Virus record (IMG/VR): IMGVR_UViG_3300027747_002439
Location: 54,851 to 74,850 of that record
Strand: one strand, 5' to 3'
From: an uncultured virus (IMG/VR IMGVR_UViG_3300027747_002439)
Taxonomy: Duplodnaviria > Heunggongvirae > Uroviricota > Caudoviricetes
Length of the DNA stretch: 20,000 bases
Made by a program: the position numbers and the translations under genes
Notes under the pieces: model-generated
The model's database searches: none
The model's input: only the letters and a program-made list of their open reading frames with translations
What the model was told of the DNA's origin: nothing
Shown here: positions 109 through 18,335 of the stretch, one piece after another
Position numbering within the stretch: position 1 is the stretch's first letter
Layout: each line of letters opens with the position of its first letter

Positions 109-210
109 CTTAGTGCCTTTCGTAGTGTGTCATTTAGTATAATAGACAATATCACATAGAGGCCAGAACGTACAACTATCACCGCAGGTTTTGTGGGATA
201 CTATCTATCA

Positions 211-486
211 ATGGAATTCAACGACGATATAGACCCTGATTTTGGTAGAGATGATGATGTTCTAATGCAGTATCTTGAGGAGGAAGGGCTACTCCTCGTC
301 CCCGTTGAGTTCATGAAGGAACTGATGGCTCTCATGGAGACATACATCCAGAACGTATGTGACGTAGATAGGGATGAACTTAGCGAGATCTTAACCCGTC
401 TAGAGGATCTTCTAGGGGAAGACGGCATGATGGACTTATCTATTGAAGGTATCGTCGGCTGGGTAAATACGCTAAAAGCTGTCTAG
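211..486 (+). CDS. Very acidic hypothetical protein (91 aa)
   Basis: ORF 193..486; start moved to ATG 211 because TACTAT (199-204) lies 6 nt upstream. 25 D/E versus 5 K/R. Confidence 0.75.
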   Translation: MEFNDDIDPDFGRDDDVLMQYLEEEGLLLVPVEFMKELMALMETYIQNVCDVDRDELSEILTRLEDLLGEDGMMDLSIEGIVGWVNTLKAV

Positions 487-491
487 GATCC

Positions 492-500
492 TGTTATAAT
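492..500 (+). promoter_or_regulatory. Extended -10 promoter TGtTATAAT
   Basis: Perfect TGnTATAAT just after the stop at 486, with no convincing ORF downstream until 759. Confidence 0.7.
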
Positions 501-506
501 TTAAGC

Positions 507-723
507 ATCGCCACTGGCCTGGTGCCGCCATCAGTAGCTTGTCACAACGAAAGCGAACCTTCGCTAATCCCGCCAATGCGAATCGTCCTGGATAAGACGT
601 ACAACTGTCATCCACTCCAACTTCAGAGTTGAGTGTCTAGCACTGGCTGGGTAGACATCGAGTGGGTTGTTGATTAGCGAGCTATCGTTACGGGTAGCAT
701 AAGAAGCGCTGCCAGTGCTAGAC
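507..723 (+). ncRNA. Candidate structured non-coding RNA, family unassigned
   Basis: Own promoter. Complementary segments 561-569/672-680, 612-617/660-665, 618-622/627-631, 634-639/652-657 and 635-647/711-723 (13 bp perfect); T-rich tract at 728-742. Confidence 0.6.
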
Positions 724-758
724 CCGATTCTTTCTAATTTTTATGATACAGTTCATTC

Positions 759-1109
759 ATGACACCGGAGATCTTTGTTCGCCCTTGGGGCTTCTATGTA
801 ATCCTTCACACTGAGCAAAAAGTACAGGTCAAACGAATACACGTTGAAAACGGAAGTCGTTTAAGTAAGCAATCACACAAACACCGCGCGGAGCATTGGT
901 ACATCACGCAAGGTTACGCGGAGGTCGAGCTATTTGACCAGATACTTCATCTTGGCCCAGGAGACTACGTCTCAATTGGGGTTGGAGAAGTTCACCGCGT
1001 AAGAGCCGAAGGCGAAGGCGACCTCGTCTTTATCGAGATTCAAACAGGTGAGTATCTTGGAGAAGATGACATCATTAGATATGAAGATGATTTTGGACGT
1101 GTTGAGTAG
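759..1109 (+). CDS. Cupin, mannose-6-phosphate isomerase type II (ManC C-terminal)-like
   Basis: RPWG, LSKQSHKHRAEHW, HRV and IEIQTGEYLGEDDIIRYEDDFGR motifs. Confidence 0.9.
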   Translation: MTPEIFVRPWGFYVILHTEQKVQVKRIHVENGSRLSKQSHKHRAEHWYITQGYAEVELFDQILHLGPGDYVSIGVGEVHRVRAEGEGDLVFIEIQTGEYLGEDDIIRYEDDFGRVE

Positions 1110-1666
1110 TGGAGCAAGAGCTTCCTACGTGGTTTAACCACGTTAAACCAAACTTTGAAAACTACCTGAGGATTGAATCTCCCTTAACTGTTTTACAGAT
1201 CGGAGTATATGAGGGTGACACAACACAGTGGTTATTAGACAATAAAAACATCAACAGGATAGTAGACGTTGACACCTGGGAAGGCTCAATAGAGCACGAA
1301 GGTACCTTTGACTTTAACCAGGTTGAGAGAGTCTACGACGAGCGATTTGCTAAAATTGAAAAGGTTGAAAAGCGTAAGGGCACAAGTGATAAATACTTTG
1401 CGACATGCCCTGCAAGTGAAAGATTTAACGTTGTCTACATAGACGGAGATCACACCGCACTGCAGACCGTGATTGATGCCCTTCATGGCTGGCGCGTGCT
1501 GGAGGTTGGCGGGATCATGATATTTGACGACTACGACTGGCACATGTATCAAGGAACACCCTTACACCCTAAGGACGGTATTGATTGCGTTCTAAGGCTG
1601 TTTAGAGGACGCTACAACCTTATCGTTACGAACTACCAGGTCTGGATTCGTAAGACCGCGGAGTAG
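1109..1666 (+). CDS. Class I SAM-dependent methyltransferase (Methyltransf_24-like)
   Basis: LQIGVYEG motif I, VDVDTW, YIDGDH, GGIMIFDDY; start overlaps the upstream stop (TAGTG). Confidence 0.85.
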   Translation: MEQELPTWFNHVKPNFENYLRIESPLTVLQIGVYEGDTTQWLLDNKNINRIVDVDTWEGSIEHEGTFDFNQVERVYDERFAKIEKVEKRKGTSDKYFATCPASERFNVVYIDGDHTALQTVIDALHGWRVLEVGGIMIFDDYDWHMYQGTPLHPKDGIDCVLRLFRGRYNLIVTNYQVWIRKTAE

Positions 1667-1705
1667 GCTTTTATCAATCATATGTAGATAAGATAAAATA
1701 AGCCT

Positions 1706-2602
1706 ATGCCTATTCTTGGAACAATCGCGAGCGGGTACAATGTACCTTTGTCAATTGTCACTGGCGGTACACTTACTAGTGACGCAACTTATTACTACCG
1801 TACATTTACTTCTACCGCAGACTTAGTAGTCACTGCAGCTCCTCTTACTGCAGATGCTCTTGTAATTGCAGGCGGAGGCCCAGGCGGAAATAACTCGGCT
1901 GGAGGATACGCTTCTGGCGGTGGAGCTGGTGGAGTTCAATATGGAGCTGCAACTTCTTTTTCGGCGGGAACTTACACGGCAACAATTGGTGGCGGTGGCA
2001 GCCTTGGGTCTAATGGAGTTGATTCTTCACTAGGTTCTTTATTTATCGCAAAGGGCGGCGGTAGAGGCGTATTAGCTAGTGCTGTAGACGGAGTAGCTGG
2101 CGGATCTGGCGGTGGAGCAAGCGGTAATCAGGGCACATCAGCAACAGCAACAGGTGGCGCAGCTACAAGCGGCACTGGCGGAATTTTTTATGGAAATAAA
2201 GGTGGAGATTCTTTTGGTGGCACAAACGGTGCGTATCCAGCGCAAGGTGGCGGAGGCGGCGCGGGCGCAGCAGGAGGTAGCGTGTCTCTTAGCGGAGGGT
2301 ACGGAGAAACTCCTGGCGGGTCGGGCGGAGATGGATTAAGCACTTGGTCATCTTGGGCAACTGCAACTGGAACTGGTAGAAGCGGATATTACGCAGGTGG
2401 TGGATGCGGCGGATACAGAGTTGATGCTTCTAGTGGACAAGCTGGCGCAGGTGGAGGCGGTGGGTACGGAGTTGCAGGTGGCACTAATACTGGTGGTGGC
2501 GGCGGCGGAGCTTTGAACGGCGGTCAATACAATACAGTAAGTGGCATAGGTGGATCTGGTATTGTTATTGTTCGCTATCTTCGTTCTGCAGTGGGTGGTT
2601 AA
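1706..2602 (+). CDS. Glycine-rich domain protein (putative virion fibre/appendage)
   Basis: TGGT...YRTFT, LVIAGGG, YYAGGG and GGSGIVIVRY: one complete glycine-rich module. Confidence 0.8.
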   Translation: MPILGTIASGYNVPLSIVTGGTLTSDATYYYRTFTSTADLVVTAAPLTADALVIAGGGPGGNNSAGGYASGGGAGGVQYGAATSFSAGTYTATIGGGGSLGSNGVDSSLGSLFIAKGGGRGVLASAVDGVAGGSGGGASGNQGTSATATGGAATSGTGGIFYGNKGGDSFGGTNGAYPAQGGGGGAGAAGGSVSLSGGYGETPGGSGGDGLSTWSSWATATGTGRSGYYAGGGCGGYRVDASSGQAGAGGGGGYGVAGGTNTGGGGGGALNGGQYNTVSGIGGSGIVIVRYLRSAVGG

Positions 2603-2619
2603 GTAATATAATTGCAAGT

Positions 2620-2847
2620 ATGAGCGACGTAATAATAGAAGTTGATACTGAAGCAGATCTGCGCACTAACAGCGGAGATCACGACAAGTTTTCGCATTAT
2701 ATTCACCGCGATGCAGCAATGGAAGCATACGTAGAAGGCAAGCCTGCTATCGCTTTATGTGGAAAAATATGGGTTCCAACAAGAGACGGAACAAAATTTC
2801 CTGTCTGCAAGCCGTGTAAAGAAATCTTTGAAACACTAGGAAGTTAA
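2620..2847 (+). CDS. DUF3039-family actinobacterial metal-binding protein
   Basis: GDHDKFSHY...ALCGKIWVPTRD...PVCKPCKEI pattern. Confidence 0.85.
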   Translation: MSDVIIEVDTEADLRTNSGDHDKFSHYIHRDAAMEAYVEGKPAIALCGKIWVPTRDGTKFPVCKPCKEIFETLGS

Positions 2848-2920
2848 CACGCTTTAACGAAAAAGCAGTATAATTCGTCATCTAATTTTGATCTAAAATT
2901 ACAACATATTCCAGGGGGTT

Positions 2921-4963
2921 TTGGTGAGCTTTTTCTCTTTCAAACTAAGCGATGATTTTGTGCAAGGGTATCGAGGAAAGAAAGCTCCTTTTGGCTACAC
3001 TGATGCAGCAGGAAACTCTGTTGGAGAAATTACTTTTCTTCGCACGTACTCTCGCTTAAAAGAAGACGGCACCAAGGAAACTTGGGCTGACGTATGCGAG
3101 CGTGTCATCAATGGCATGTACTCTATTCAAAAAGATCACTGCAAAAGCCAAAGACTTCCTTGGAATGATTCAAAGGCACAGGCATCTGCAAAGGATGGAT
3201 TTGATAGACTATTTAATCTAAAGTGGACACCGCCAGGTCGTGGTCTCTGGGTTATGGGTACTCCTTTAGTTAACGTGCAAAAGAACTCTGCAGCACTGCA
3301 AAACTGTGCATTTGTTTCAACACTTGAAATGACAAAGCAAAACCCAGCAAAGCCTTTTGCGTTTCTTATGGAAGCGTCAATGCTCGGCGTTGGTGTAGGA
3401 TTTGATGATAAAGGTGCAGACAAAGATTTTGTGATTTATTCACCGCAAGGAGAGGAAACATACGTTGTCCCAGACACAAGAGAAGGATGGGTTGAATCAC
3501 TCTCAATCATCCTCAATGCTTACCTCAAGCCAGATCAGAAGGCTCCATTATATGATTACAGCCAAGTCCGCCCAGCAGGTATTCCAATCAAGACGTTCGG
3601 TGGCACAGCCGCAGGACACGAACCGTTAGAACGTTTACACAACTACATCCGTAAACTATTTGAAGGACGCGCCGGTGAAAAAGTTACTCGTACTGATCTT
3701 GCTGACATCGGTAATCTTATTGGCGTGTGCGTTGTTTCTGGCAACGTTCGTCGCTCAGCTGAACTTCTAATCGGTCGCCTTGATGACGATACGTTCCTAA
3801 ACCTTAAGAACACAGAGCGTTTCCCAGAGCGCAATAGCTATGACCCAGCATCACCGGGTTGGGGCTGGATGTCAAACAACTCCATTGAAACAACAGTAGG
3901 ACAAGATCTAGACAAGATCGTTGAGGGCATTGCCCGCAACGGAGAGCCTGGCGTAGTCTGGATGGACGTATCACGTAAGTATGGTCGTTTAGCAGATCCA
4001 GTAAACAACAAGGATCACCGCGTAGTTGGATACAACCCTTGCGCAGAGCAGTCACTTGAATCATACGAGTGTTGCACGCTTGTTGAGACGTATCTAGGAC
4101 GTCACGATTCACTAGAAGACTACAAGCGCACGTTGAAGTTTGCATATCTATATGCTAAGACAGTGACGCTGCTTCCTACTCACTGGGAGGAGACAAACGC
4201 AATCATGCAACGCAACCGCCGTATCGGAACTTCAATGTCCGGTGTAGCTAACTTTGCAGACAACGTTGGTTTACCAACTCTGCGTGAGTGGATGGACGAA
4301 GGATACAAGACAGTCAAGACGTATGACAACACGTATTCAGAGTGGCTTGGTATTCGTGAGTCTATTAAGATGACTACCGTTAAGCCTTCAGGTACAGTTT
4401 CAATCTTGGCAGGAGAGTCACCGGGAGTTCACTGGACACCAGGCGGAGAGTACTTTAACCGCGCAATTCGTTTCTCTAACGAAGATCCAATGTTGCCTCT
4501 CTTCAAGATGGCAAACTACAGAGTTGAGCCTGCGTCAGAGTCACCAGACTTTACGAGCGTCGTGTTCTTCCCTATCAAGTCAAGCGCTAAGCGTGCCGAG
4601 AAGGAAGTATCAATCTTTGAGAAGACAGCAATCGCCGCAACAGCGCAGCGCTACTGGTCAGACAACTCTGTCTCTGTAACCGTATCATTTGATCCTGAAA
4701 AGGAAGCGGAGCACGTAGGAACAGTTCTTCACATGTACGACGGACAGTTGAAGACAGTGTCCTTCCTGCCGATGGGTAACTTCACATATCCGCAGATGCC
4801 ATACACGCAGATCACCGCAAGTGAGTATGAGGATGCGACGATGAAGTTGTTTCCTATTGACTTCACCGGAGTCTACGCAGGAATGGCGTCGGATGCAATC
4901 GGAGATGCGTACTGCACAACTGATGCGTGCGAGGTTAAGCTTATCGTGGAGAACATGAAGTAA
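2921..4963 (+). CDS. nrdJ: Class II (adenosylcobalamin-dependent) ribonucleotide reductase, monomeric RTPR type
   Basis: PPGRGLW, NCAF, VVSGNVRRSA, catalytic NPCAEQ..ECCTL, KPSGT and C-terminal CTTDAC redox pair. Start is TTG 2921 or GTG 2924. Confidence 0.93.
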   Translation: MVSFFSFKLSDDFVQGYRGKKAPFGYTDAAGNSVGEITFLRTYSRLKEDGTKETWADVCERVINGMYSIQKDHCKSQRLPWNDSKAQASAKDGFDRLFNLKWTPPGRGLWVMGTPLVNVQKNSAALQNCAFVSTLEMTKQNPAKPFAFLMEASMLGVGVGFDDKGADKDFVIYSPQGEETYVVPDTREGWVESLSIILNAYLKPDQKAPLYDYSQVRPAGIPIKTFGGTAAGHEPLERLHNYIRKLFEGRAGEKVTRTDLADIGNLIGVCVVSGNVRRSAELLIGRLDDDTFLNLKNTERFPERNSYDPASPGWGWMSNNSIETTVGQDLDKIVEGIARNGEPGVVWMDVSRKYGRLADPVNNKDHRVVGYNPCAEQSLESYECCTLVETYLGRHDSLEDYKRTLKFAYLYAKTVTLLPTHWEETNAIMQRNRRIGTSMSGVANFADNVGLPTLREWMDEGYKTVKTYDNTYSEWLGIRESIKMTTVKPSGTVSILAGESPGVHWTPGGEYFNRAIRFSNEDPMLPLFKMANYRVEPASESPDFTSVVFFPIKSSAKRAEKEVSIFEKTAIAATAQRYWSDNSVSVTVSFDPEKEAEHVGTVLHMYDGQLKTVSFLPMGNFTYPQMPYTQITASEYEDATMKLFPIDFTGVYAGMASDAIGDAYCTTDACEVKLIVENMK

Positions 4964-5142
4964 TGCCACAGTACGAATATCATTGCAAGAATGGTCACTA
5001 CAACCTCATAGAGCGTAGCATAAGCGAGCCAGAGGGTAATCCAACCTGCACCGCTCCGGAGTGCTCTGAAGAGCTTAAGAGACAGTACAGCGTACCTTCA
5101 ATAAGCTTCAAAGGAAACGGGTTTTACTCAACGTCTAAATGA
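4963..5142 (+). CDS. FmdB-family zinc-ribbon protein (59 aa)
   Basis: Manual translation MPQYEYHCKNGH...CTAPEC...SFKGNGFYSTSK; TAATG coupling to nrdJ; below the ORF-track cutoff. Confidence 0.85.
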   Translation: MPQYEYHCKNGHYNLIERSISEPEGNPTCTAPECSEELKRQYSVPSISFKGNGFYSTSK

Positions 5143-5177
5143 CGTACTTTTGTCATAGTTCAATATAGAATTATTTA

Positions 5178-5480
5178 ATGGCAAAACATAACCCGCAGCT
5201 TCTCAACCTGCGCCCTGTCTATGATGACTGGGCATGGCAGGAACAGTCTAACTGTCGTGATGTAGATTCAGATCTATTCTTTTTAGATCTGATGGCACGT
5301 GGCAAGGAAAAACGTGAAAAAGAAAAAGCTGCCAAGAAGGTGTGTAGAGGTTGTCCTGTTTTGGAACAATGCTTAAGTCATGCTCTTTCAATTCCAGAGT
5401 TCTTTGGTGTCTGGGGCGGAATGACAGCGGACGAACGAAACTTTATTCTTCGCAAGCAAGGATTAAGAATAGTTAAGTAA
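5178..5480 (+). CDS. whiB: WhiB-family Fe-S transcription factor (WhiB3-like)
   Basis: WAWQ..C...LFF...AKKVCRGCPVLEQCLSHAL...GVWGG: four cysteines plus GVWGG turn. Confidence 0.93.
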   Translation: MAKHNPQLLNLRPVYDDWAWQEQSNCRDVDSDLFFLDLMARGKEKREKEKAAKKVCRGCPVLEQCLSHALSIPEFFGVWGGMTADERNFILRKQGLRIVK

Positions 5481-5536
5481 GTGTAAACTAAAAACTTATA
5501 GTTTACAAGAATTCCTATTGTGTGTATGGTCCGTCC

Positions 5537-5824
5537 ATGGCACTAGACATACAGCTATCTAGCAATTACCCTGTCTTCAAAGATCTTGGAGTCCCTGCTT
5601 GTGCGACTACAGATCCTGAGATTTTCTTTCCAGAAAAAGGAGCAAAGGGCCAATCTCAATACATCATTGGCGCAGCGCGAAGAATGTGTGCAGGCTGTCC
5701 TTATAAAGAGCCGTGCCTTGCATGGGCAGTAGAGCACGATGAAATGGGAATCTGGGGCGGAACTACCCAGAAAGAACGACGTGTTCACCGCAGAAAGTTA
5801 AAAGTAACAAACAGCAATAAATGA
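5537..5824 (+). CDS. whiB: WhiB-family Fe-S transcription factor (WhiB2-like)
   Basis: CATTDPEIFFPEKG...CAGCPYKEPC...GIWGG...ERR with a basic tail. ATG 5537 lies 6 nt after TATGGT. Confidence 0.93.
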   Translation: MALDIQLSSNYPVFKDLGVPACATTDPEIFFPEKGAKGQSQYIIGAARRMCAGCPYKEPCLAWAVEHDEMGIWGGTTQKERRVHRRKLKVTNSNK

Positions 5825-5880
5825 TAGAATAATAAAGCTTCTTGGGAGAGGTAAGCAAACCTTACTACCTCTATCCCTAG
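5822..5880 (+). promoter_or_regulatory. Extended -10 (TGaTAGAAT) followed by a 5'-leader hairpin
   Basis: TGATAGAAT at 5822-5830; GGGA-GAGG-TAAG/CTTA-CCTC-TCCC bulged stem ending just before the GGAG SD at 5881. Confidence 0.5.
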
Positions 5881-5889
5881 GGAGATTAT

Positions 5890-6183
5890 ATGGCAAAAAA
5901 GAACGACATTATGGAAGCTGATGTTTCAGTGGCAGCAGGACCAGTCACCGCGATTAAGAACATCTTGCTTCGTATCATAGCAGTATTCGCTGCATCAGGA
6001 CTTAGTGTTATCGGCGCTGGCGCTGTTGTTGGAATTAGCACCGCGAAGGCAGTAATCCTTGCTGGAACACTTGGTGTTGCAACTGTAGTTGAGCGCCTTG
6101 CTCGTGGATTCATGGACGATGGAAAACTTACCGTTCAAGAAATTAACGCTGCATTTAACTCTGTAGACAAGAAGGCTAACTAA
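5890..6183 (+). CDS. Small membrane protein, holin-like
   Basis: Two hydrophobic segments, charged C-terminus with DDGKLTVQEI, GGAG SD. Confidence 0.65.
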   Translation: MAKKNDIMEADVSVAAGPVTAIKNILLRIIAVFAASGLSVIGAGAVVGISTAKAVILAGTLGVATVVERLARGFMDDGKLTVQEINAAFNSVDKKAN

Positions 6184-6185
6184 AT

Positions 6186-6341
6186 ATGAGCCCTACACTA
6201 AAGCTAGGACTTATGGTTTTTGGAACTTTAGGCGTTATATACATAGTCTCTTACTTGACGGCTGAAATCATATTTAGACTTACAAAAGAGGACGTTAACA
6301 CGGCATTTGCCGCGGTAGACAAGCGAGCAGCTGCAGAATAA
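6186..6341 (+). CDS. 51-aa single-TM paralogue of the C-terminal half of 5890..6183
   Basis: Manual translation MSPTLKLGLMVFGTLGVIYIVSYLTAEIIFRLTKEDVNTAFAAVDKRAAAE; shares GTLGV and LT....N.AF..VDK.A. Confidence 0.7.
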   Translation: MSPTLKLGLMVFGTLGVIYIVSYLTAEIIFRLTKEDVNTAFAAVDKRAAAE

Positions 6342-6384
6342 CCCGTAGACACCTATGTCTACATTTAATGATTCTTACGGCTTT

Positions 6385-6498
6385 ATGAGTAATGAACGAC
6401 GTATGCAGCAATGGACGTGTGCCATTTGTGACAAGGTATATGTTGTTTCATCGCTAGCAAGAGACTGTGAGGATAGACACCTAGCTACTGAGAAGTAG
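6385..6498 (+). CDS. 37-aa zinc-finger-like microprotein
   Basis: Manual translation MSNERRMQQWTCAICDKVYVVSSLARDCEDRHLATEK (CxxC-x12-CxxxH). Confidence 0.65.
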   Translation: MSNERRMQQWTCAICDKVYVVSSLARDCEDRHLATEK

Positions 6499-6521
6499 TT
6501 AGAAAAACCTATAGGAGAATA

Positions 6522-7538
6522 ATGAAGTTAATACGTAACATAGCAATGACATCTGTCGTTGCGCTAGGTCTTGGAGCTGCAGTTGCACTCCCGGCAAGCG
6601 CTGCGGACATGTCACTATCAGTAAAGGTCGGAGCAGCTGTTGCAAGTTCGAACGCAACAACAGCTTTAGTACCTGCAGTAGTAACGGTTCCAGCAGATAA
6701 CACAATCGACGAAGCAGACGTAGTCCGTTTGGTCGCAACTGTAGACGCAGGTACCTCAGTTTCATTCGTCGCAACAGGAGCTATCAAGCTCGTTGCAGCT
6801 CTAGATAATCCAGCGGCAGTGCGTGTACGCTCGACAGACGGAGCTTCATCAGTTGTTGTAGCAACAGGAACAGGTAACACTGCAACTGTTTATGCTTACA
6901 CAACTAATGTAGCGGCAGGTACAATCATCGTTTCTAACGGTGGAGTTACCAACACAATTTACATGAAGGGCACAGCAGGCGCAGCATCAGCAGTTTCTGT
7001 AGTTGCTCCTTCAGCTGTAGCTTCTGGCACAGTGGCAACATACACATTTACAGCTCTAGACGTTTTCGGCAACAAGGTTTCCGGCCTTGCGATTAACGCT
7101 ACAGTTGCAGGTGCAACAGTTGCTTCAACTGGCCTTAACGTGGCAACAGTGACAACAGCGGTTGATACAGCTACAGTAGGTCTTGGCAACGCAGAGCTTA
7201 AGGTTCTTGCTCCTGCTACTGGATCTATTACAGTTGTAGCAACAGCTACAGGCGTGGCTGCAGTTGCAGCTACAACAGTCGTAAGCGATCTTGCAGCAGA
7301 ACTTGCAAAGGTCAAGGCTGAACTTGCCGCTGAGAAGGCAGGACGCGCAGCTGATAAGACTGCAGCGGACGCGGCAATGGCTAAGGTAGTAGCGGATAAC
7401 GCGGCTGCTAAGGTTGTTACAGATAAGGCAGTTGCTGATCTTTCAGCCGCAGTTGCTAAGCTCAATAAGGACATGGCCTCAATTAAGGCTAAGTACAACG
7501 CGATGGCAAAGAAGTATAAGTTCACCGCGATTAAGTAA
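6522..7538 (+). CDS. Exported Ala/Thr/Val-rich surface protein (Ig-like beta domains plus C-terminal coiled coil)
   Basis: Signal peptide ending ALPASA, beta-strand-rich body with DVFGN, Ala/Lys helical tail; AGGAG SD and own terminator. Confidence 0.75.
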   Translation: MKLIRNIAMTSVVALGLGAAVALPASAADMSLSVKVGAAVASSNATTALVPAVVTVPADNTIDEADVVRLVATVDAGTSVSFVATGAIKLVAALDNPAAVRVRSTDGASSVVVATGTGNTATVYAYTTNVAAGTIIVSNGGVTNTIYMKGTAGAASAVSVVAPSAVASGTVATYTFTALDVFGNKVSGLAINATVAGATVASTGLNVATVTTAVDTATVGLGNAELKVLAPATGSITVVATATGVAAVAATTVVSDLAAELAKVKAELAAEKAGRAADKTAADAAMAKVVADNAAAKVVTDKAVADLSAAVAKLNKDMASIKAKYNAMAKKYKFTAIK

Positions 7539-7552
7539 AGTAGGTCATTAAG

Positions 7553-9343: not shown

Positions 9344-9547
9344 ATGGCAAAGGTAACACCTATCAAGGACAAAAAGGTAACGCAGTGCTTCAGCTATGAG
9401 GTCACTATGCTTATCCATATCATTGCGGACGACGAGATCACCGCAAAGAAGCAATTGGACGAAAAGGGCGGAATCGTCACTCGACGTGACGTCAAGCTCG
9501 TCAACGCAGATGTGGTCTACGGGGAAGGTAACCTAGACCCGAAGTAG
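9344..9547 (+). CDS. Hypothetical protein
   Basis: ORF 9299..9547; GGGAG SD favours ATG 9344. Confidence 0.7.
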   Translation: MAKVTPIKDKKVTQCFSYEVTMLIHIIADDEITAKKQLDEKGGIVTRRDVKLVNADVVYGEGNLDPK

Positions 9548-10183: not shown

Positions 10184-10390
10184 TTAAGCGTCTTTTGGCG
10201 GAAGTATGTCCAGCTTGTCATAGACGGCTGTTGCCGCCTCCCAGATTGTTTCGCTGTGCACGAACGCATGTATGTCACATAGAAAGATTATCTTGTTTTT
10301 AATCTCAGCCTTCACCGCAGCAAAGGACGGGCAGAGATCACAGACGTCACTAGGAACTATCGGAGAGATGACTCCATAGGTCAAGGGCAT
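10184..10390 (-). CDS. Small Cys/His protein (CDLC...LCDIH)
   Basis: Start moved to ATG 10390 (TATTAT 6 nt upstream); the longer ORF-track call overlaps the tRNA. Confidence 0.7.
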   Translation of the reverse strand: MPLTYGVISPIVPSDVCDLCPSFAAVKAEIKNKIIFLCDIHAFVHSETIWEAATAVYDKLDILPPKDA

Positions 10391-10887: not shown

Positions 10888-11099
10888 AACCGCTCTGCAC
10901 GTCTCCAGTGTAGATATGATTTAACATATACCGCGGAGTAAGCGGTGGCTGCAAAGATAAATCCGTATTGATCTGTCGCAAGAGCGTACACAATCCAGAT
11001 ACACTCGTTAGTTAAAAGAACAAGCCAACCCCATATAGTCTTGCGACCTACAAAGTATATCCCTGTCACACCTATCACCGCAAGTACCCAGGACCACAT
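10884..11099 (-). CDS. Small 3-TM membrane protein, PnuC/SemiSWEET-like half-transporter
   Basis: WSWVL..IG..G...GRK..WGW.....E.IWIVYA....QYGF; TGATG coupling gives start 11099. Confidence 0.6.
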   Translation of the reverse strand: MWSWVLAVIGVTGIYFVGRKTIWGWLVLLTNECIWIVYALATDQYGFIFAATAYSAVYVKSYLHWRRAERL

Positions 11100-11191
11100 C
11101 AATTAAGTTCCTTCCCGTCATCTGTAGCTCCGCAAATAGAGCAGGTAACCTGTCCGTCTAAATCTTGCACGAAGTCGTGCTTGTGCGTCAT
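11099..11191 (-). CDS. 30-aa HxH/CxxC microprotein (in-frame alternative start at 11272)
   Basis: Manual translation MTHKHDFVQDLDGQVTCSICGATDDGKELN; GAAGGA SD. Confidence 0.55.
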   Translation of the reverse strand: MTHKHDFVQDLDGQVTCSICGATDDGKELN

Positions 11192-11284
11192 TAGATCCTT
11201 CTTAACCTGTTCATCAAGAGAGGATGGCACCCTTCTGAATACGTGACAAAAAAGTCTGGTCGGGGCGCTCATTTATACTTCTTT

Positions 11285-11908
11285 TTACTTCGTGTTGATA
11301 TCTCTATAAGGGCAAAAGGTATGAGAAAGCTGGCAAGGTGTAGTTGCATCAGGGCTACAAGTTTTGCATACCTTAACTGCCGGGGACCAGTACTGCGTCG
11401 CATTAGTGGGCACTTTATCTGTGTAAGAAATGGTAATTATGTATCTTTTGCCAGATATTACTGGATTTACCCCGTGTAGGTACGGTGTTGGGAAATAAAT
11501 AAGTTCATACTTTTCTGGTCTGTAAGTGTATCCACCATCGATTTCTGGGAAAGATAGTTCTCCGCCTTCGTACTCATCATTTAGATATATGACTGTGCTT
11601 ATCGTCTCAGACTCATCTTCAACGTCTCTATGAACTTTCATGAAGGCGCCCTCTTCGTACAGCCCTACTAAGTTTTCTGCTACGTAAAGTTCTTCTTGAT
11701 CAATAAATTTATTAGAATACTTTTTTACAAAATCAATCAAGACAGGGTTATCAGAGTTGTATAGTCTAAAAGTGCCGTCTCCTCTTTCGTTATTTAGTTG
11801 ATCTTTTAATTTTAACTCTTCCATCAAGTTAATCAATGCTTGAGCGTCCGACGGTTCAACATAGTTTTTTATTGATTTTATTTGCTCTTTATCCATAAGC
11901 TTTGTCAT
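11285..11908 (-). CDS. 2OG-Fe(II) oxygenase (prolyl-4-hydroxylase-like) with a Cys-rich tail
   Basis: HRD, VIYLNDEYEGGEL, HGV and GKRY motifs; ATGA coupling suggests start 11908. Confidence 0.88.
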   Translation of the reverse strand: MTKLMDKEQIKSIKNYVEPSDAQALINLMEELKLKDQLNNERGDGTFRLYNSDNPVLIDFVKKYSNKFIDQEELYVAENLVGLYEEGAFMKVHRDVEDESETISTVIYLNDEYEGGELSFPEIDGGYTYRPEKYELIYFPTPYLHGVNPVISGKRYIITISYTDKVPTNATQYWSPAVKVCKTCSPDATTPCQLSHTFCPYRDINTK

Positions 11909-12099
11909 TTGCATGACGAACAGTAGAAGGGAACGCGAAGGTTATCTTTGTTGGTGGTGACAACAATGCAGCACTTAGAACACTTTGCGTGGATAAGATC
12001 CTTGCTATTAAACTTGCTTAACTTAAAAACAGTCGACCCCGTGTAATAAACCTTAGTCGCATACCACGTAACAAGCATGGCGAAAATTGTAGTTAGCAT
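11905..12099 (-). CDS. Membrane-anchored zinc-ribbon protein
   Basis: Hydrophobic N-terminus; CSKC...YCSSCK. Confidence 0.65.
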   Translation of the reverse strand: MLTTIFAMLVTWYATKVYYTGSTVFKLSKFNSKDLIHAKCSKCCIVVTTNKDNLRVPFYCSSCK

Positions 12100-12101
12100 A
12101 A

Positions 12102-12581
12102 TTACTTCTTGCCTTCCTGCACGCGCATAGCGTGACGCTGAACGGCGTAATAGAGAGGAGCGGATGATGAAAGACCTAGCGCCTTAGAGACGGTAGCAAG
12201 GGAGATGCCCGCGTGGTACGCATCATGCAACTCTTGATGGTAATCCTCGGTTGACGTATCACGTGCCTTTAGAATGGACTCAAGTGACTTAGCGATGGTC
12301 TCCTCGGTCGCGCGTGAACGGTTTTTACGAGCTACAGGGGGAATGGCCGAGGTGAAAACTCTCCGCCGCAGGCCGGAATAGGCAACACCTAACTTCTCTG
12401 AGAGAGCAACGAGGGATCCACCCTTAGAGTAGTATTCCTTAATTAGCTCTGTGTACTTGGCGGATGCCCTGTGGGCAGGGGTTGCCTGTCCGCGAAGTCC
12501 GTAGGCCTTCTTTGCAAGCTCAAGGTGAGGCGCAATTTTAGCCGCGTACTTTTCGGTAATCTCTTCAAACTGTTTGCTCAT
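12102..12581 (-). CDS. Basic protein with two helix-turn-helix-like repeats
   Basis: GGSLVALSEKLGVAYSGLRRRV and GISLATVSKALGLSSSAPLYYAV; ATGA coupling gives start 12581. Confidence 0.7.
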   Translation of the reverse strand: MSKQFEEITEKYAAKIAPHLELAKKAYGLRGQATPAHRASAKYTELIKEYYSKGGSLVALSEKLGVAYSGLRRRVFTSAIPPVARKNRSRATEETIAKSLESILKARDTSTEDYHQELHDAYHAGISLATVSKALGLSSSAPLYYAVQRHAMRVQEGKK

Positions 12582-12892
12582 TGTGGGTTTCCTGATTCTG
12601 TCATCACTCGGACTGCGGGTATACTCCATAGGTTGGATTTAATAATTGTCTGCATTGCATCATGCACCGCGATTGACGCCTTTTTCATATTAGCGTTATC
12701 GGGGTCGGGGATAGTAAGATCATACTCAAAGGACGCAACGATTCCACGGTAGTCATCATTTGGCTCGACGTTAATGGTCTTTGTCTTGATATCTACAAAG
12801 GGAAGAAGAGAGGTAGCCTCTACAGCATTGTTAAATGCTTTCTCGGCAATATCTTCATCAACGTTGACTACGTATACAACAAGTCTTTTCAT
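12578..12892 (-). CDS. Hypothetical protein
   Basis: GAGGAG SD and upstream TATAAT on - strand. Confidence 0.75.
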   Translation of the reverse strand: MKRLVVYVVNVDEDIAEKAFNNAVEATSLLPFVDIKTKTINVEPNDDYRGIVASFEYDLTIPDPDNANMKKASIAVHDAMQTIIKSNLWSIPAVRVMTESGNPQ

Positions 12893-12973
12893 CTATAATC
12901 TCTCCTCGTTATTGATTAACGAGTTAAATTATATACAGGAAACGCGTATTTATTATAATTTTAAAGAAGAGGA

Positions 12974-13159
12974 TTATCCCTCTGTATCTTCATCATCCTT
13001 AGGATTACGAAGAGGGTAGGTAGCTATCCAAAACGCAGAGGTAGCAATGATTGCATATCCTGTAATGGTCTTTGCAGATCCATCAAGCACAAGCCAAGCT
13101 ACGAACATGCCAAGGAGAGTCCATGCTTGGTCTACAATGTCGCGGAAGAGATCTTTCAT
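12974..13159 (-). CDS. Small 2-TM membrane protein
   Basis: DQAWTLLGMFVAWLVLDGSAK; TAAGGAG SD and TAGAAT upstream. Confidence 0.75.
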   Translation of the reverse strand: MKDLFRDIVDQAWTLLGMFVAWLVLDGSAKTITGYAIIATSAFWIATYPLRNPKDDEDTEG

Positions 13160-13190
13160 TATTTTTGCTCCTTAAGTTGCATATTCTATA

Positions 13191-15908
13191 TTATTTTCTT
13201 GGGGTTCTATTGGTTGTACGACGTCGGCCAATCTTCTTTCCTTTGCCATCTCCTGATGATCCACCTCCACCACCTCCCCCTCCAGAGGAGCCACCGCTAG
13301 ATGATGAGCCGCCGCGTGAAGCAGAGCCTGCTGCAGATGTTGCTGCACCTGCCGCTGCTTGAATTGCAGCTCCTGCGGCAACAACAGTTGCCACAACCGC
13401 TTCCTTAGACTGCTTACGTTCTTCATCAGACATATCCGCGCCTAGATTAGAAAGCGCTGTAAGAACCTGTCCAGGGTCTGTTAAGGCCGCCGCAAGGAGT
13501 TGCCCTGGGTCTGCTAACACTTCAAACGCTGCCTGAACTTCAGCAACGATAACTACTCCGTTTGCAAGTTCAACCGGTGTATCAGGAGGTAAATCTTTGT
13601 AGTCAATTCCAGAAGCTGCCATCGCGGACGCAGGAATTGCATCACCGTTGTTTGTAAATGCAGCAACAAGAACTCCTGCAACCGCAGTTTTCTCTGACGC
13701 AGATAGTTCTCCTCCTCCAGAGATTTGAGCTACAACATCTCTAATCTCCGCGACAGAAACTTTTCCATCAGCCGCAAGTGATTCTCCAACAGCCCTTGCT
13801 TCACTCGCAGAAACTCTGCCATCTGCAAGAGCTTCTACCGTGCTTTCATGAGCAGATGGTATAGGATCTGGCTTAGGTTCTTTCACAGGAGGTTCTAATG
13901 GTGTTGGTGGTTCGACGGGTTCTGGCTCTGGTGTTGGCGGTTCCACTGGTTGTGGTGGTTGTTCCGGCTCTGTTGGTGGCTGTGGTTTTGGGTCTACTGG
14001 GGTATCTGGGTCGACTGGTGTTTCAGGCTTTGGAATTGGCGGTGCAGGGACTTCAGGTGTTGGCGCAGGTATCTCCTCGGTCGGAGGAGTAGGTGGCTCT
14101 ACAGGAGCTTGAGCTACTGGTTCAGGAGTTGGAGCTGGGGGTTCTGGTGCTTGAGGAGCGTTTACAGACGCTGCTGCTGCTGCTGCTGCTTGTGCAGCGT
14201 TAGCCGCTGCTTGTTGAGCAGCAAGTTGCTCCGCTAAAACTCTTGCAGCTTCAACTGCAGACTGTATGGCAGCTGCCTGCGTAACAACTACTTGAGCCGC
14301 CGTGATAGCAGTAGGTGCGGCAACAACAACATCAACTGCAGATGAAACTGCAGCAAGTGATTCAGTCTTAGTAGTTAACGTCGTAGTTGCAGTTTGCAAA
14401 GCTGCAACCGTATTTGAAGAGACTATCGTGATAGGAGCGAGAGCTGCTACCGCAGAAGTAGTAGTGGCATTTTGAGCAACAATCGCTGTAACCTGTGTGT
14501 TAAGCGCTGCGATCTGCGCGTTGGCTGTGTTGATAGCCGCTTGAATAGTAGCGGTGCTTGAGTCTGGAGTTGGCGTAAATGCAGCTCCTTGACTGATTGT
14601 TCCATTAAATCCAGGTCCCGAGTTTGTGTCCGCTATAGCGGTAACTGCTCCGCCGGTAGTTTCTCGCATGTTAAACCTTGCGCCATTCGGAATTAGACCG
14701 GTAACGTTTACATCCGCTGCCCATGCGCCGTCTTGTGGATTAACGTCCGCGTTAAATCTAATCTGTGTCATCTGAGTATCGGCAGTTCTTAGAGGAAAGA
14801 CGCGAACGTCCCACGCGATAGATAGGGTATTAGTTGTTGTCGAGTAGGTAACTCCGGATCCGTTACTCCACGTCGTCCAGTCATATCCCGCGATAGAAAT
14901 TGAAGGTGCGTTAGGAGTGGAGTAATAATTTTGTCCTTCGTTGACACCAAAGGTAATCGTTGCGTTAGAACCAACATAAACATTTGTGTAAACGGTGTTT
15001 CCCATGCGTAGGTTAAACGGTAGGTTCATGCGAACCCCTGCATCGTCTGTATTTGCTAAAACGTTTGTAGACGTTCCGATGGTTGCAGCCAATGCGTTAA
15101 CTGCGTCCTGCGCTGTGTTGATTGCGACGTTAGCCTGAGTTAACTGAGTCTGCGCCTCTGTTCGTGCAGGAGCTATAGCAGCTACCGCTGTTGTTGCAGC
15201 TGCGATGGACGCAGTTGCGGATTCAATTGCGGTGGACGCTGTTTGAATTGCAGTGGACGCTGTCGCCGCCCGGGCAGTCTCTGTTGCAATCGCGGTAACA
15301 ACCGCGGAGGTTGTCGCTAAAGGCTCTGCCGCTATAGTGTTGGCAGCCGCTATAACTGTTGCAGTTGCGCTTTCTACAACCGCTGTTGCGTTTGTAATCG
15401 CAGTCTGCGCGGTAGTGATCTCGGGTGTAGACGCGGTAATAGTCACGGGTATCGCCGCGATAGCGGTAGCAACCTGTGTTACGGCAGCTGTAACGGTAGC
15501 AGCTGTCGCAGTTGCTGTATCGGTAACCGTTGAGGTATTTGCAACTGCTGCAACCGCTGTGACCGCGGTGGAGACGGCGGTGGTTGCGGTGGCAACCGCG
15601 GTGTTAGAGGCAGTGACTAATGGCTGTGCGATAGCGACGGTAGCGGCAGCGGTATCGGACGCAGCCGCTGCCTGGGTAACTTCAGTTGTGGCGGTAGCCA
15701 GTGCGGTGTTGACCGCCTGCTGTGCAGGGCTAACAACTACCTGCTCAGACGGTGCAGGAACCGTATCCTCGGCGTACGCCAAGGATTGTCCTAATAGATA
15801 TAGTGTAGCGCTTAGAAGAAGGGTAGCAAAAAATCTATAAGATATGTTGCTCTTCCTGTGTTGCTTATGTGTCTCGTGCTCTCCCCCACGGTGAGCTTTA
15901 CGGGGCAC
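13191..15908 (-). CDS. 905-aa exported/membrane protein: Ala/Thr helical stalk, nidogen(NIDO)-like beta domain, Pro-rich linker, helical C-domain
   Basis: Signal-like segment ending AYA; DDAGVRMNLPF...YTNVYVGSNATITFG; PEP/PTP repeats; C-terminal hydrophobic segment followed by a Gly/Ser and basic tail; TAAGGA SD. Confidence 0.75.
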   Translation of the reverse strand: MPRKAHRGGEHETHKQHRKSNISYRFFATLLLSATLYLLGQSLAYAEDTVPAPSEQVVVSPAQQAVNTALATATTEVTQAAAASDTAAATVAIAQPLVTASNTAVATATTAVSTAVTAVAAVANTSTVTDTATATAATVTAAVTQVATAIAAIPVTITASTPEITTAQTAITNATAVVESATATVIAAANTIAAEPLATTSAVVTAIATETARAATASTAIQTASTAIESATASIAAATTAVAAIAPARTEAQTQLTQANVAINTAQDAVNALAATIGTSTNVLANTDDAGVRMNLPFNLRMGNTVYTNVYVGSNATITFGVNEGQNYYSTPNAPSISIAGYDWTTWSNGSGVTYSTTTNTLSIAWDVRVFPLRTADTQMTQIRFNADVNPQDGAWAADVNVTGLIPNGARFNMRETTGGAVTAIADTNSGPGFNGTISQGAAFTPTPDSSTATIQAAINTANAQIAALNTQVTAIVAQNATTTSAVAALAPITIVSSNTVAALQTATTTLTTKTESLAAVSSAVDVVVAAPTAITAAQVVVTQAAAIQSAVEAARVLAEQLAAQQAAANAAQAAAAAAASVNAPQAPEPPAPTPEPVAQAPVEPPTPPTEEIPAPTPEVPAPPIPKPETPVDPDTPVDPKPQPPTEPEQPPQPVEPPTPEPEPVEPPTPLEPPVKEPKPDPIPSAHESTVEALADGRVSASEARAVGESLAADGKVSVAEIRDVVAQISGGGELSASEKTAVAGVLVAAFTNNGDAIPASAMAASGIDYKDLPPDTPVELANGVVIVAEVQAAFEVLADPGQLLAAALTDPGQVLTALSNLGADMSDEERKQSKEAVVATVVAAGAAIQAAAGAATSAAGSASRGGSSSSGGSSGGGGGGGGSSGDGKGKKIGRRRTTNRTPRK

Positions 15909-15916
15909 TTTTTTCC

Positions 15917-16168
15917 TTAGTCTAGTTGTTTATTGCTTCTATCTGATGGGTGAGCTTTCTTGTCAAGTTCCTGCCAGGTAATATTGGATATTCTGTCTGA
16001 GAGGAGTACAACCTCGTTAAGAAGATCCTGTGCCTGGATAGCTAGGTCTGCGCGAAGCTCTATAGAACCTGGGTCCTCTAGCTCTAAGAGTAGGGTACGG
16101 ATTGTGTAGGTACATGCCTGCATACGGTTCATCGCCTGGTAGTGCGCGGTCGAATTGCCGATAATCAT
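15917..16168 (-). CDS. Hypothetical helical protein
   Basis: ORF with TAAAAT 6 nt upstream of ATG on - strand. Confidence 0.65.
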   Translation of the reverse strand: MIIGNSTAHYQAMNRMQACTYTIRTLLLELEDPGSIELRADLAIQAQDLLNEVVLLSDRISNITWQELDKKAHPSDRSNKQLD

Positions 16169-16199
16169 AGGAGGATTTTAACGTGAAATCTTCACCGCG

Positions 16200-16560
16200 A
16201 GCAAGAATAAGAGGACGAAAAGAGAGAAGAGAGTGAACGAGAATTATTAAAGAAATGGTTGAGAATGGTTGAATATGAGTTGGAGTTGCAGAAGGGTGAA
16301 AAGTAGATACTAAGTGAAAGTGATAGAGCTGGAGATACAAAAGTGCTTAGTAAGGCTCCAGGTCGATACTAAGTGAAAGTAGTGGTTCGAAAAGTTGATT
16401 GCTGCTTAGTATCTTAAATAATCCTAATAATCTGAATATTATAATACTTAAATAGTTAACTATATTTAGTTTACGTGTAGGGAGTTCTCCCTAGGGGCTT
16501 TAGTTTTTATAGTCAAGAATTAAAGAATTAAGATTTTAAGTTGATTTTGGTTGTACTTTG
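16200..16560. other. Putative replication origin / divergent control region
   Basis: Largest non-coding gap, at the strand-switch point; purine-skewed tract, 59-bp-periodic repeats, AT-rich tract, palindromes; TCACCGCR polarity flips here. Confidence 0.55.
16306..16411. repeat. Two units of GATACTAAGTGAAAGT-N22-TGCTTAGTA at 59-bp period
   Basis: 16-mers at 16306-16321 and 16365-16380; 9-mers at 16344-16352 and 16403-16411; TACTAAG/CTTAGTA inverted within each unit. Confidence 0.85.
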
Positions 16561-16608
16561 GTTGGCTATCATGATAAGGTTTTTTATACAAACGATAGGA
16601 GAGACAAA

Positions 16609-16794
16609 GTGTTACTAAAAACTGATTGGGTTGCAATTGTAATTGCTACATTTGGTGTAGCCATAGTTGCATACTACGGCTGGTCAGCAAGAAAAGAAAA
16701 TCCAGTGATGAGGAAGATCCTCTACTCACTGCTTGTCCTTATAACTATCCTGTGGGCACTATGCATCTACATGGTGCTTGAAGTCAATGGATAA
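16609..16794 (+). CDS. Small 2-TM membrane protein
   Basis: AGGAG SD before GTG 16609; two hydrophobic helices separated by a basic loop. Confidence 0.65.
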   Translation: MLLKTDWVAIVIATFGVAIVAYYGWSARKENPVMRKILYSLLVLITILWALCIYMVLEVNG

Positions 16795-17272
16795 AGGAAA
16801 ACCGATGATTGATGATGATGCCCTAAAGGCAATGGGATTATCCTTCGAGGAAGTTGCGGCGGCAGATAAGAAGCTGGTTGCAAAAACTAAGAGCGGTGGT
16901 CGAGATCGACGGGTCTGCGTTTGTGGTCACGCCATGACCAAGCACACGGTCTACTCTGGAATGGTTGACTGCAAGCCAAGTGCTCTGCGTTGTCCCTGCA
17001 AGAAACCTAGAGCTGTCCTTGAGGTAGACGATACTCGTGTGTTCCTTCGTAAGACTGAAGGTGCAGGAGCAATGCATGCCTTAGCTCGTGGAATGTACTC
17101 GAGCATTCAAGCAGGTAAGTCCGTCAAGTGGATTATTGAGCTTGCCTGCGATAGGTGCGGTGAAAAGGCCACGAACGTTATTCCTGTCCCCGTGACTCAA
17201 TCTGGATATGGTGCAGATGAAGCAACTGGCTTTGACGCTCTGTTGTGTCCTACATGTAGAACGGTGGTGTGA
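16787..17272 (+). CDS. Cys-rich multi-zinc-binding protein
   Basis: CVCGH....H, C......CPC, CDRC, CPTC; start uncertain (16787 or 16805). Confidence 0.75.
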   Translation: MDKGKPMIDDDALKAMGLSFEEVAAADKKLVAKTKSGGRDRRVCVCGHAMTKHTVYSGMVDCKPSALRCPCKKPRAVLEVDDTRVFLRKTEGAGAMHALARGMYSSIQAGKSVKWIIELACDRCGEKATNVIPVPVTQSGYGADEATGFDALLCPTCRTVV

Positions 17273-17273
17273 T

Positions 17274-17513
17274 GTGGCTAAGAAGAAAAAGAAGGATCTC
17301 CCTGCGTATGTTCTTATCGAGATGCCAGAGTGGAAAAGTAGAGTACTTAATTATATGCTGATGGTTCTTAATATCCCTGGCCAAGCCTGGGTGATTGCTA
17401 TTGAGGATACGGGATTTACGTATGACGGTGAGTCCTTCACGGACGAAGAGACCGGATTGACAATTAACAAGATTAGCAAGAAGGTGGCAAATGGCGCTAA
17501 GCTCACACTATGA
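17274..17513 (+). CDS. Hypothetical protein
   Basis: ORF 17208..17513; GTG 17274 lies just after the upstream stop. Confidence 0.65.
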   Translation: MAKKKKKDLPAYVLIEMPEWKSRVLNYMLMVLNIPGQAWVIAIEDTGFTYDGESFTDEETGLTINKISKKVANGAKLTL

Positions 17514-17649
17514 AAGAAAGCTAGGTAAGACGGGTAACCGTTGGTTTCATTGTGGTTACTCACATAGACGTCTTGCGCTCGGGATAGCCATTAGCCCAAA
17601 CAACTTTGATCTTGATTTGATCTTTGTCTGGGTGGGCTTTGAGTGGTGA
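17491..17649 (+). CDS. 52-aa hypothetical protein
   Basis: Manual translation MALSSHYERKLGKTGNRWFHCGYSHRRLALGIAISPNNFDLDLIFVWVGFEW; AAGGTGG SD; TGATG coupling to the next gene. Confidence 0.65.
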   Translation: MALSSHYERKLGKTGNRWFHCGYSHRRLALGIAISPNNFDLDLIFVWVGFEW

Positions 17650-18335
17650 TGAAAGAGTTACCGATTGTCAAGGCTGATGTACTTCACTATGACGTCCTGA
17701 TTGCGACGCCAGCATTCTCGTTCGTGCCAGAGTACGTGACGAGTCTCGTTGCCACTACCAGAATGCTCAACGAGAAGGGAATCTCATACCACCTGCTTCA
17801 TAAGTCTGGTTCATTTATCCCAAGTACTCGTGAACAGGTTGCGACAGATTCCTATGGACATAACTGGAAGACCAACGAGATTGGCGGTGGAAAGTACACC
17901 TACAAGAAGATCTTTTGGATTGATTCGGATATCGAGTGGACGCCGGAAGATTTTTTACGTATCTATGATTCAGAGATGGACGTGGTCAGCGGGTTGTACC
18001 AAACCAACCCAAACGGTACAGTAGCGGTTAATCTATCAGATCCACAAGGACGCCCAACACTTGTCAACAAATCTGACTTCCTTCTCCATTGGGAGCCAGT
18101 GGAGGTTGGCGGTGTAGGTTTCGGTTTCGTTGCGATGAAGCATGGAGTCTTTGAAAGTATGAAGAGACCCTGGTTCAAGATCCGCGAGGTCTTCTGGGAA
18201 GAGAACGGTTTTGCGGTGAACATGGGAGAAGACTACTCCTGGTGTGAAGGCGCTAAGGAAGCCGGATATAAGATTTGGGTAGACCCCACCGTTAAGCTGA
18301 AACATCATAAACAAGTGGTGTACGTCGTTGAGTAA
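17649..18335 (+). CDS. GT-A fold (family 2-like) glycosyltransferase
   Basis: VLIATP, FWIDSDI (DxD), VGFGFVAM, GEDYSWC, IWVDP...H.K. Confidence 0.8.
   Translation: MKELPIVKADVLHYDVLIATPAFSFVPEYVTSLVATTRMLNEKGISYHLLHKSGSFIPSTREQVATDSYGHNWKTNEIGGGKYTYKKIFWIDSDIEWTPEDFLRIYDSEMDVVSGLYQTNPNGTVAVNLSDPQGRPTLVNKSDFLLHWEPVEVGGVGFGFVAMKHGVFESMKRPWFKIREVFWEENGFAVNMGEDYSWCEGAKEAGYKIWVDPTVKLKHHKQVVYVVE

Follow-up and report, generated by a model that had tools for sequence, protein, structure and literature searches.

Why should a short DNA word face one way along most of a region of a phage genome and then turn round at a single place, irrespective of the genes in which it lies? This question is raised by a 20,000-nucleotide stretch of an uncultured tailed phage (IMG/VR record IMGVR_UViG_3300027747_002439, positions 54,851 to 74,850; the window in what follows), in which the octamer TCACCGCR is both over-represented and strand-polarised. 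By analogy, and with a probability of about 0.4, we favour the reading that the word acts on a helicase-nuclease in a Chi-like manner that depends on its orientation, comparable to Chi in the phages P1, LLS and MD8, which are rich in it.

The window takes up the final 20 kb of one 74,850-bp contig, whose GC content is 45.5%. The contig matches part of a 129,506-bp virus record, G001 (locus L005), with 0 mismatches. By a 127-bp overlap between its ends G001 closes into a circular map, which is 129,379 bp long and represents the complete genome. Coordinates in G001 run in reverse to those of the window. The true genome is thus 129 kb long, and not 75 kb like the contig; the polarity described in the first-pass annotation is confirmed and becomes stronger on the whole genome.

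All 15 copies that had been counted by eye in the window are present, 13 on the '+' strand (179 to 16192) and 2 on the '−' strand (17156 and 18212). The over-representation is equally clear, as 0 of 200 dinucleotide-preserving shuffles of the window reached 15 copies (mean 1.04, largest 5). The 74,850-bp contig contains 30 copies of TCACCGCR and 1 of TCACCGCY, and complete G001 contains 42 copies compared with 7 of the reversed word. The first-pass annotation had asked for codon-preserving shuffles on the full genome, and these were run as sets of 300 in which synonymous codons were swapped within each gene, so that protein sequence and codon usage were kept. The enrichment survives in G001 (42 observed against 9.3 ± 2.6, largest 18) and is found again in the related genome G002 (48 against 12.5 ± 2.8, largest 19), with an excess of z = 12.6 and 12.9. 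Three further relatives, all incomplete records, gave 18 copies against 6.2 ± 2.4 (G004, largest 15), 13 against 7.1 ± 2.2 (G003, largest 15) and 4 against 4.2 ± 1.9 (G005, largest 10).

After repeats are masked, TCACCGCA is the commonest octamer of G001 (22 copies, rank 1 of 29,093), and it also ranks first by order-3 Markov excess (22 against 4.4). Other words that are over-represented in the raw genome (GTTGCGCC, GGTGGTGG and similar) were rejected as products of the collagen-like or Gly-rich repeats. A consensus of D-TCACCGC-R-R, with YGCGGTGA as the complement of its core, was obtained from 108 sites in three genomes. This asymmetric consensus of 8-10 nt is tight, and one-mismatch variants of the word are mostly non-polar. 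The word is under positive selection. It is short, asymmetric and strongly enriched in the genome that carries it, as is expected of a Chi-type sequence. A literature search with the word itself matched only primer sequences. By the order-3 Markov measure, GGATCT/TGGATCT is also over-represented in G001 and G002, as is the palindrome CTCGAG in G003, G004 and G005.

The orientation of the word is set by genome position and not by gene strand. Sense, antisense and intergenic copies number 17, 24 and 1 in G001 and 18, 27 and 3 in G002; on the contig the numbers are 14, 15 and 1, and all three reading frames are used, in agreement with what had been noted in the window. Along G001, the 11 sites between 4.7 and 55.3 kb are '+', three sites at 70.8–71.9 kb are '−', the 8 sites from 72.9 to 95.2 kb are '+', and from 96.2 to 123.8 kb there are 19 '−' sites with one '+' exception. 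A fitted two-arm model has one border, d, at 95.7 kb, equivalent to 16.2–17.2 kb of the window, and the other, a, at 123.0 kb, a short way upstream of the Prim-Pol/helicase gene. Both borders are conserved divergent intergenic regions.

Under the two-arm model, 37 of the 42 sites in G001 are concordant compared with 5.5 ± 2.0 in shuffles, whereas the 5 discordant sites are at chance level (4.0 ± 1.8). With the concordant sites above the shuffle level and the discordant sites at it, one orientation per arm is enriched, by about 6.7-fold. The strand changes 6 times round the circle, against 21.5 on permutation, and none of 20,000 permutations gave a number as low. To the right of the window the '−' orientation persists, in 19 of the 22 sites that the following ~101 kb of the circle contain. 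Neither of the outcomes that the first-pass annotation had named as refuting the polarity, a lack of enrichment under codon-preserving shuffles or mixed orientation beyond position 20000, was thus obtained. The arms differ in density by 3.5-fold: the short arm (27.3 kb) has 0.66 sites per kb at a spacing of about 0.2-1.9 kb, and the long arm (102.1 kb) has 0.19 sites per kb and contains a site-free stretch of 15.5 kb. The expectation of exactly two switches on the full genome holds for the two major ones, but there is in addition a small conserved cluster in which three sites are reversed, and the arms differ greatly in length.

Among words of 6–8 nt, TCACCGC tracks the arms best in both gene-strand strata (11/11 and 19/21, repeats masked), a test that is not independent, since the arms were defined from TCACCGC itself. 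Of the other words of this length, none follows the arms at comparable strength in both strata, which shows that there is no general strand asymmetry. TGTTAAT is arm-concordant at 16/16 sites after masking, which is non-significant given the number of words tested. The caveat that a looser word runs the other way at 15229-15708 of the window is correct, with CACCGC found there six times on the '−' strand and never on the '+' strand.

The layout is shared by related phages. G002, whose primase is 83% identical, is collinear with G001 and has the same arrangement of sites, although only 13 of the 33 G001 sites that align to G002 are retained and the others have been lost or gained (DNA identity in the aligned stretches is about 66–87%). 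Of the lineage-specific sites of the dense arm, 14 of 15 in G001 and 13 of 14 in G002 have the orientation of the arm. This can be explained by selection on orientation and cannot be explained by an old inversion. Whole-genome counts against the reversed-word control gave 37 and 10 copies in G409, 26 and 9 in G410, and 24 and 7 in G411, all with the same arm pattern; the word is not enriched in G412 and G413 by the same comparison.

The switch at 16.2-17.2 kb of the window recurs in 29 loci surrounding the gene for a 230-amino acid protein. Relative to the start of this gene (17643), unique sites to the left of −1300 are 24 '+' and 2 '−', those to the right of −500 are 25 '−' and 3 '+', and there are none in between. 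Switch d thus falls between −1311/−1412 ('+') and −487/−192 ('−'), and it is retained down to about 56% identity of the 230-amino acid protein. In 66 loci surrounding the primase gene, switch a is no further than about 3 kb from the start of the gene in clades whose primase is at least 83% identical. The small reversed cluster, which comprises two or three sites and is found 23–28 kb away from d in the interval that separates the portal gene from the terminase gene, recurs in G001, G002, G409 and G411 and may be a real minor feature because of this recurrence. The longest hairpin of the genome (15-bp arms, 7-nt loop) is found at this minor switch, at G001 72247, where it separates the three reversed sites from the next '+' site. 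Two candidates for an analogous polar word in the relatives were rejected: CACCGTC in G005 follows gene strand, and TCTCCMC in G004 follows gene strand over a long '−' gene block.

These comparisons bear on the proposal that the word has no direct function and is a by-product of codon or amino acid usage, mutation bias, inversions, or the avoidance of head-to-head sites for an orientation-dependent restriction enzyme. In high-GC actinobacteria, coding alone makes the word 5-10 times commoner than its reversal, and orientation-dependent restriction (Type III, Type ISP) rewards sites that face the same direction. However, the codon-preserving shuffles are far exceeded, avoidance cannot produce a 6.7-fold excess, no composition skew is linked to the arms, and new sites arose in the arm orientation in both lineages after the split of G001 and G002. 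The shuffles, the arm-specific excess and the new oriented sites largely rule out this explanation, which we regard as highly improbable.

The place where the arms meet may be an origin or a genome end. Opposed arms that disregard gene direction call for a process that leaves a single point in both directions, or that enters at two ends and moves inward. The sites agree equally with two geometries. In one, the DNA would end at d, the origin would lie near the primase gene and the signal would be TCACCGCR; in the other, the origin would be at d and the signal would be YGCGGTGA. The AT-rich region at d holds direct repeats at 16303-16321 and 16362-16380 and at 16344-16352 and 16403-16411, each pair spaced by 59 bp, and 67% of the coding bases run in the same direction as YGCGGTGA. 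The depth is also raised: in runs X1 and X2, a contig that spans 13273-20000 of the window and extends about 9 kb further is covered 1.45-1.6 times as deeply as the contigs next to it (61 against 42 and 78 against 49). In each of the two runs the excess is equivalent to a doubling of about 8.5-9.4 kb. This could reflect a terminal repeat of ~9 kb, origin-proximal copies or mixed strains. The repeats, the co-directional coding and the raised depth weakly favour an origin at d. The origin near 16.4 kb proposed in the first-pass annotation gains weakly from the spaced repeats and the co-directional coding, and ambiguously from depth, but no GC or AT skew switches there, and the other switch, beside the primase-helicase gene, is an equally plausible origin. 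A genome end deduced from the starts of 15 related contigs, which cluster 200-600 bp upstream of the primase gene, was rejected: the nucleotides differ, and we take the starts to mark a hypervariable boundary. No long palindromes of the telomere type were found in the genome, and two-origin models with symmetric forks were discarded as the arm lengths do not fit.

The proximity of switch a to the primase gene would suit a replisome signal, in which the Prim-Pol, D5_N and SF3-helicase protein would preferentially prime or load at the word on the lagging-strand template, and the direction of the word would mark fork movement away from an origin. Bidirectional forks would yield two opposed arms, and the site spacing in the dense arm resembles Okazaki fragment lengths. 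Some Prim-Pol enzymes require a short template word (GTG for ORF904 of pRN1), the alpha protein of P4 binds octamer iterons that have TTCACC in common with this word, and phage primase sites such as the 5'-GTC of T7 gp4 would be strand-polarised with fork direction. Priming is needed everywhere, however, and site density is not even, given the 3.5-fold difference between the arms and the 15.5-kb stretch that has no site at all. To our knowledge, primase specificities comprise 3-5 nt, whereas this word has 8-10 nt and is very unevenly spaced. The word also does not covary with the primase: relatives with a 75-78% identical primase lack the enriched word, no analogous polar word was found in them, and no strand composition skew accompanies the arms. 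The density difference and the relatives that have a similar primase but no word thus weaken the primase-site alternative of the first-pass annotation, and we consider a replisome signal, the chief rival of the Chi-like reading, unlikely, though possible. The uneven density is easier to reconcile with a signal directed at an end or a zone than with one that replication needs in general.

A tight asymmetric consensus with mostly non-polar one-mismatch variants would also suit strand-specific nick or cleavage sites of a phage nuclease, as in T5-like nicked genomes, with the cut on the same strand relative to each arm. A small gene of a nuclease family, conserved in five of five relatives compared, lies in the dense arm (window 5890-6183). 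The same gene is present in G003 and G005, which both lack enrichment of the word, and all nicked phages that we know of carry their nicks on one strand throughout. Nick sites are accordingly a rather improbable explanation.

We return to the Chi-like signal. By family scans of its proteins, the genome belongs to a tailed phage of actinobacteria and encodes three WhiB-like genes, and the ribonucleotide reductase gene is 73% identical at the DNA level to that of Actinomycetia phage DSL-LC01. The structural module includes TerL, portal, major head protein and tape measure, and the genome also has arrays of collagen-like tail-fibre genes. The replication and recombination genes encode a PolA-type polymerase, an SNF2 helicase, a PD-(D/E)XK exonuclease, Sak4, SSB and the Prim-Pol + D5_N + SF3-helicase protein. 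In the proposed mechanism, 5'-D-TCACCGC-R-R-3' would be recognised in an orientation-dependent way by an enzyme that starts at a fixed point or at DNA ends and moves along the phage DNA. Recognition would most likely cause a helicase-nuclease to stop degrading the DNA and to spare or recombine it instead. Candidate readers are an end-resection enzyme of the host and the SNF2 helicase, PD-(D/E)XK nuclease, Sak4 and SSB module of the phage. With opposed arms, an enzyme moving in one defined direction along either arm would always meet the word from the same side. The data show that the word is enriched, independent of coding and polar by region, that its switch is sharp and conserved, and that sites turn over while their polarity is kept; we infer the helicase-nuclease nature of the reader, the strand that bears the signal, and the role of d as an origin or as the site of the virion ends. 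Of the earlier interpretation, a selected word that is independent of coding and transcription and has a sharp, conserved flip is retained, and a Chi-like function is its best available reading.

Chi sequences of bacteria (E. coli GCTGGTGG, B. subtilis AGCGG) provide one parallel. Like them, the phage word is short, asymmetric and bipolar in the manner of replichores, and its complement YGCGGTGA is G/T-rich as known Chi words are. The orientation of E. coli Chi is, in the text available of one study, largely explained by gene direction and codon usage (10.1101/2021.07.08.451572), whereas that of the phage word is independent of gene direction. According to the accessible parts of two reports, Chi is the commonest octamer in P1 and its relatives, lambdoid LLS and Pseudomonas MD8, at about one per 2-3 kb (PMC12315714; bioRxiv 10.1101/2021.07.08.451572), and its orientation is non-random with crowding in one zone (PMC12315714; Subramaniam & Smith 10.1101/2021.07.08.451572). 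The same parts describe Chi on both strands of P1, facing nucleases that enter from either side (PMC12315714; 10.1101/2021.07.08.451572). Among documented cases Chi in these phages comes closest, and with it the present word shares top rank, density, orientation dependence and uneven crowding. In contrast, their word is the experimentally known Chi of host RecBCD and they mostly lack recombination genes of their own, as far as those parts extend. Here the word is new, the phage has its own Sak4/exonuclease/SSB module, and there are two clean opposed arms that switch within about 1 kb or less.

Bipolar octamers are also known as guides for DNA translocases. The word could be a guide of this kind, like FtsK-orienting polar sequences (KOPS) or architecture-imparting sequences (AIMS), by which an FtsK-type or SMC-type enzyme would be directed to one of the switches as its site of resolution or terminus. 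The TCACCGCR arrows converge on one point and are denser near it, and the phage encodes a small serine recombinase (family scans). The family scans turned up no XerCD/dif-type site and no FtsK-like phage gene, however, and the arms are very unequal. AIMS in Corynebacterium genome papers are reportedly G-rich, unlike this word. KOPS and architecture-imparting sequences read by FtsK are polar 8-mers that flip at origin and terminus, in the portions of two sources available (PMC3384302; PMC5993296), and the phage word resembles them as a polar 8-mer with flips. As described in those portions they are chromosome-wide words of the host, whereas the present word is non-polar in three actinobacterial chromosomes and no link to a translocase was found. 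A translocase guide is therefore very unlikely.

The three chromosomes (G287, G359 and G272) are complete-looking, 1.3–1.4 Mb in size, low in GC and from the same class, and served as stand-ins for the host of the phage; matches of the phage reductase protein in a host search were only to distant, mostly high-GC genomes. Together with results on the phages themselves, they supply several points that weigh against the Chi-like signal. In all three GC-matched stand-ins the word is found on both strands chromosome-wide with no replichore polarity, and in the first 400 kb of G359 (GC 45.9%) it is at the order-3 expectation (25 against 25.5 and 18 against 18.5). This weakens the earlier idea that the word mimics a chromosome-wide host signal, an idea that the three stand-ins leave unsupported. 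No RecC-family match was obtained in G287, G359 or G272, in a search that was insensitive and detected 1 of 14 control genomes. In the available text of one paper, no Chi is known for actinobacterial AdnAB, and the enzyme is proposed to be Chi-independent (PMC5314763). The phage carries its own recombination module (Sak4/exonuclease/SSB), and in lambdoid phages, according to the parts of the report available, such a module goes with few Chi sites (PMC12315714). The phage arms show no linked GC or AT skew at four-fold-degenerate sites (arm term −0.03 ± 0.02). Assembled Logan contigs bridge switch d unbroken, and neither a genome end nor an origin can be located from the contigs.

Relatives of similar GC also lack enrichment. 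Clades with a 74-78% identical primase are mostly without the word, and in G005, of similar GC and with replication proteins about 77-83% identical, it is at chance. Loss of the word in relatives such as G005 fits a change of host and a changed phage factor equally well. A comparison of gene content, in which G003, G004 and G005 are incomplete, found no DNA enzyme that is present only where the word is enriched. In a class-wide count of actinobacterial genomes the reversed-word control is confounded by codon usage, and long same-strand runs in that count were discarded as a listing artefact, in which forward matches had been placed first.

The positions of the copies and of the switch in the window are listed in Table 1.

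Table 1. Copies of TCACCGCR and features of the polarity switch in the window
Feature	Position	Strand	Context
TCACCGCA	179..186	+	intergenic, 14 nt ahead of open reading frame (ORF) 193-486
TCACCGCG	992..999	+	sense, ORF 759-1109
TCACCGCG	2703..2710	+	sense, small ORF 2620-2847
TCACCGCA	3440..3447	+	sense, ribonucleotide reductase gene
TCACCGCG	4015..4022	+	sense, ribonucleotide reductase gene
TCACCGCA	4812..4819	+	sense, ribonucleotide reductase gene
TCACCGCA	5785..5792	+	sense, near 3' end of WhiB-like gene
TCACCGCG	5945..5952	+	sense, small nuclease-family gene (5890-6183); kept at orthologous place in G002
TCACCGCG	7522..7529	+	sense, ORF 6522-7538, 16 nt ahead of stop
TCACCGCA	9438..9445	+	sense, ORF 9299-9547
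TCACCGCA	10312..10319	+	opposite local '−' features (doubtful ORF 10184-10471, adjoining tRNA-Gly)
TCACCGCA	11075..11082	+	antisense, '−' ORF 10884-11102
TCACCGCG	16192..16199	+	last copy of dense arm; 24 nt upstream of '−' gene starting at 16168
TCACCGCA	17156..17163	−	antisense, '+' ORF 16778-17272; first copy of long arm
TCACCGCA	18212..18219	−	antisense, '+' gene 17643-18335 (230 amino acids)
polarity switch d	16200..17155	.	between last '+' and first '−' copy
AT-rich divergent intergenic region	16169..16557	.	inside switch d; candidate origin or genome-end region

ORFs were assigned by a simple longest-ORF rule. A tRNA-Gly (GCC) at window 10413-10486 on the '−' strand was mapped from an ARAGORN match at G001 101895-101968, and the ORF at 10184-10471 that overlaps it is probably spurious. 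Contig depth rises to 120-230x at this tRNA in all four runs, presumably due to tRNA sequence common to other organisms. A Gly-rich gene for a protein of 562 amino acids at window 7630-9318 is one of several phrog_2295 paralogues. Logan contigs from four runs contain dozens of alternative joints and skips inside it, and the gene appears to be hypervariable and cassette-like. Collagen-like tail-fibre genes form arrays at 48.7-52.8 kb of the contig (L003 12.7-16.8 kb) and at 28.8-42 kb, and a serine invertase/resolvase of 219 amino acids is encoded beside them. The arrays and the invertase could form a module for switching host range, in the manner of Gin or Cin. Outside the window, a gene of the histone-deacetylase family adjoins TerL (G001 76627-77673), and the virion module encodes a 684-amino acid protein with a ferritin-like domain (G001 67059-69113).

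The Chi-like signal addresses the open question of whether the double-strand-break machines of actinobacteria obey any Chi-like word, where nothing is known for AdnAB in the available text of the paper cited above (PMC5314763). A clade that enriches one oriented octamer about 7-fold, with a flip within about 1 kb and a polarity that outlasts the turnover of sites, offers a concrete candidate word, and the phages of the clade are a natural set of substrates on which it can be tested. It is possible, though rather unlikely, that this is the first Chi-type word of an actinobacterial AdnAB-class machine or of a phage helicase-nuclease, in which case the switches would mark the origin and the DNA ends. 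The layout of the sites would then give a marker, readable from sequence alone, of the origin and genome ends in uncultured 130-kb freshwater actinophages.

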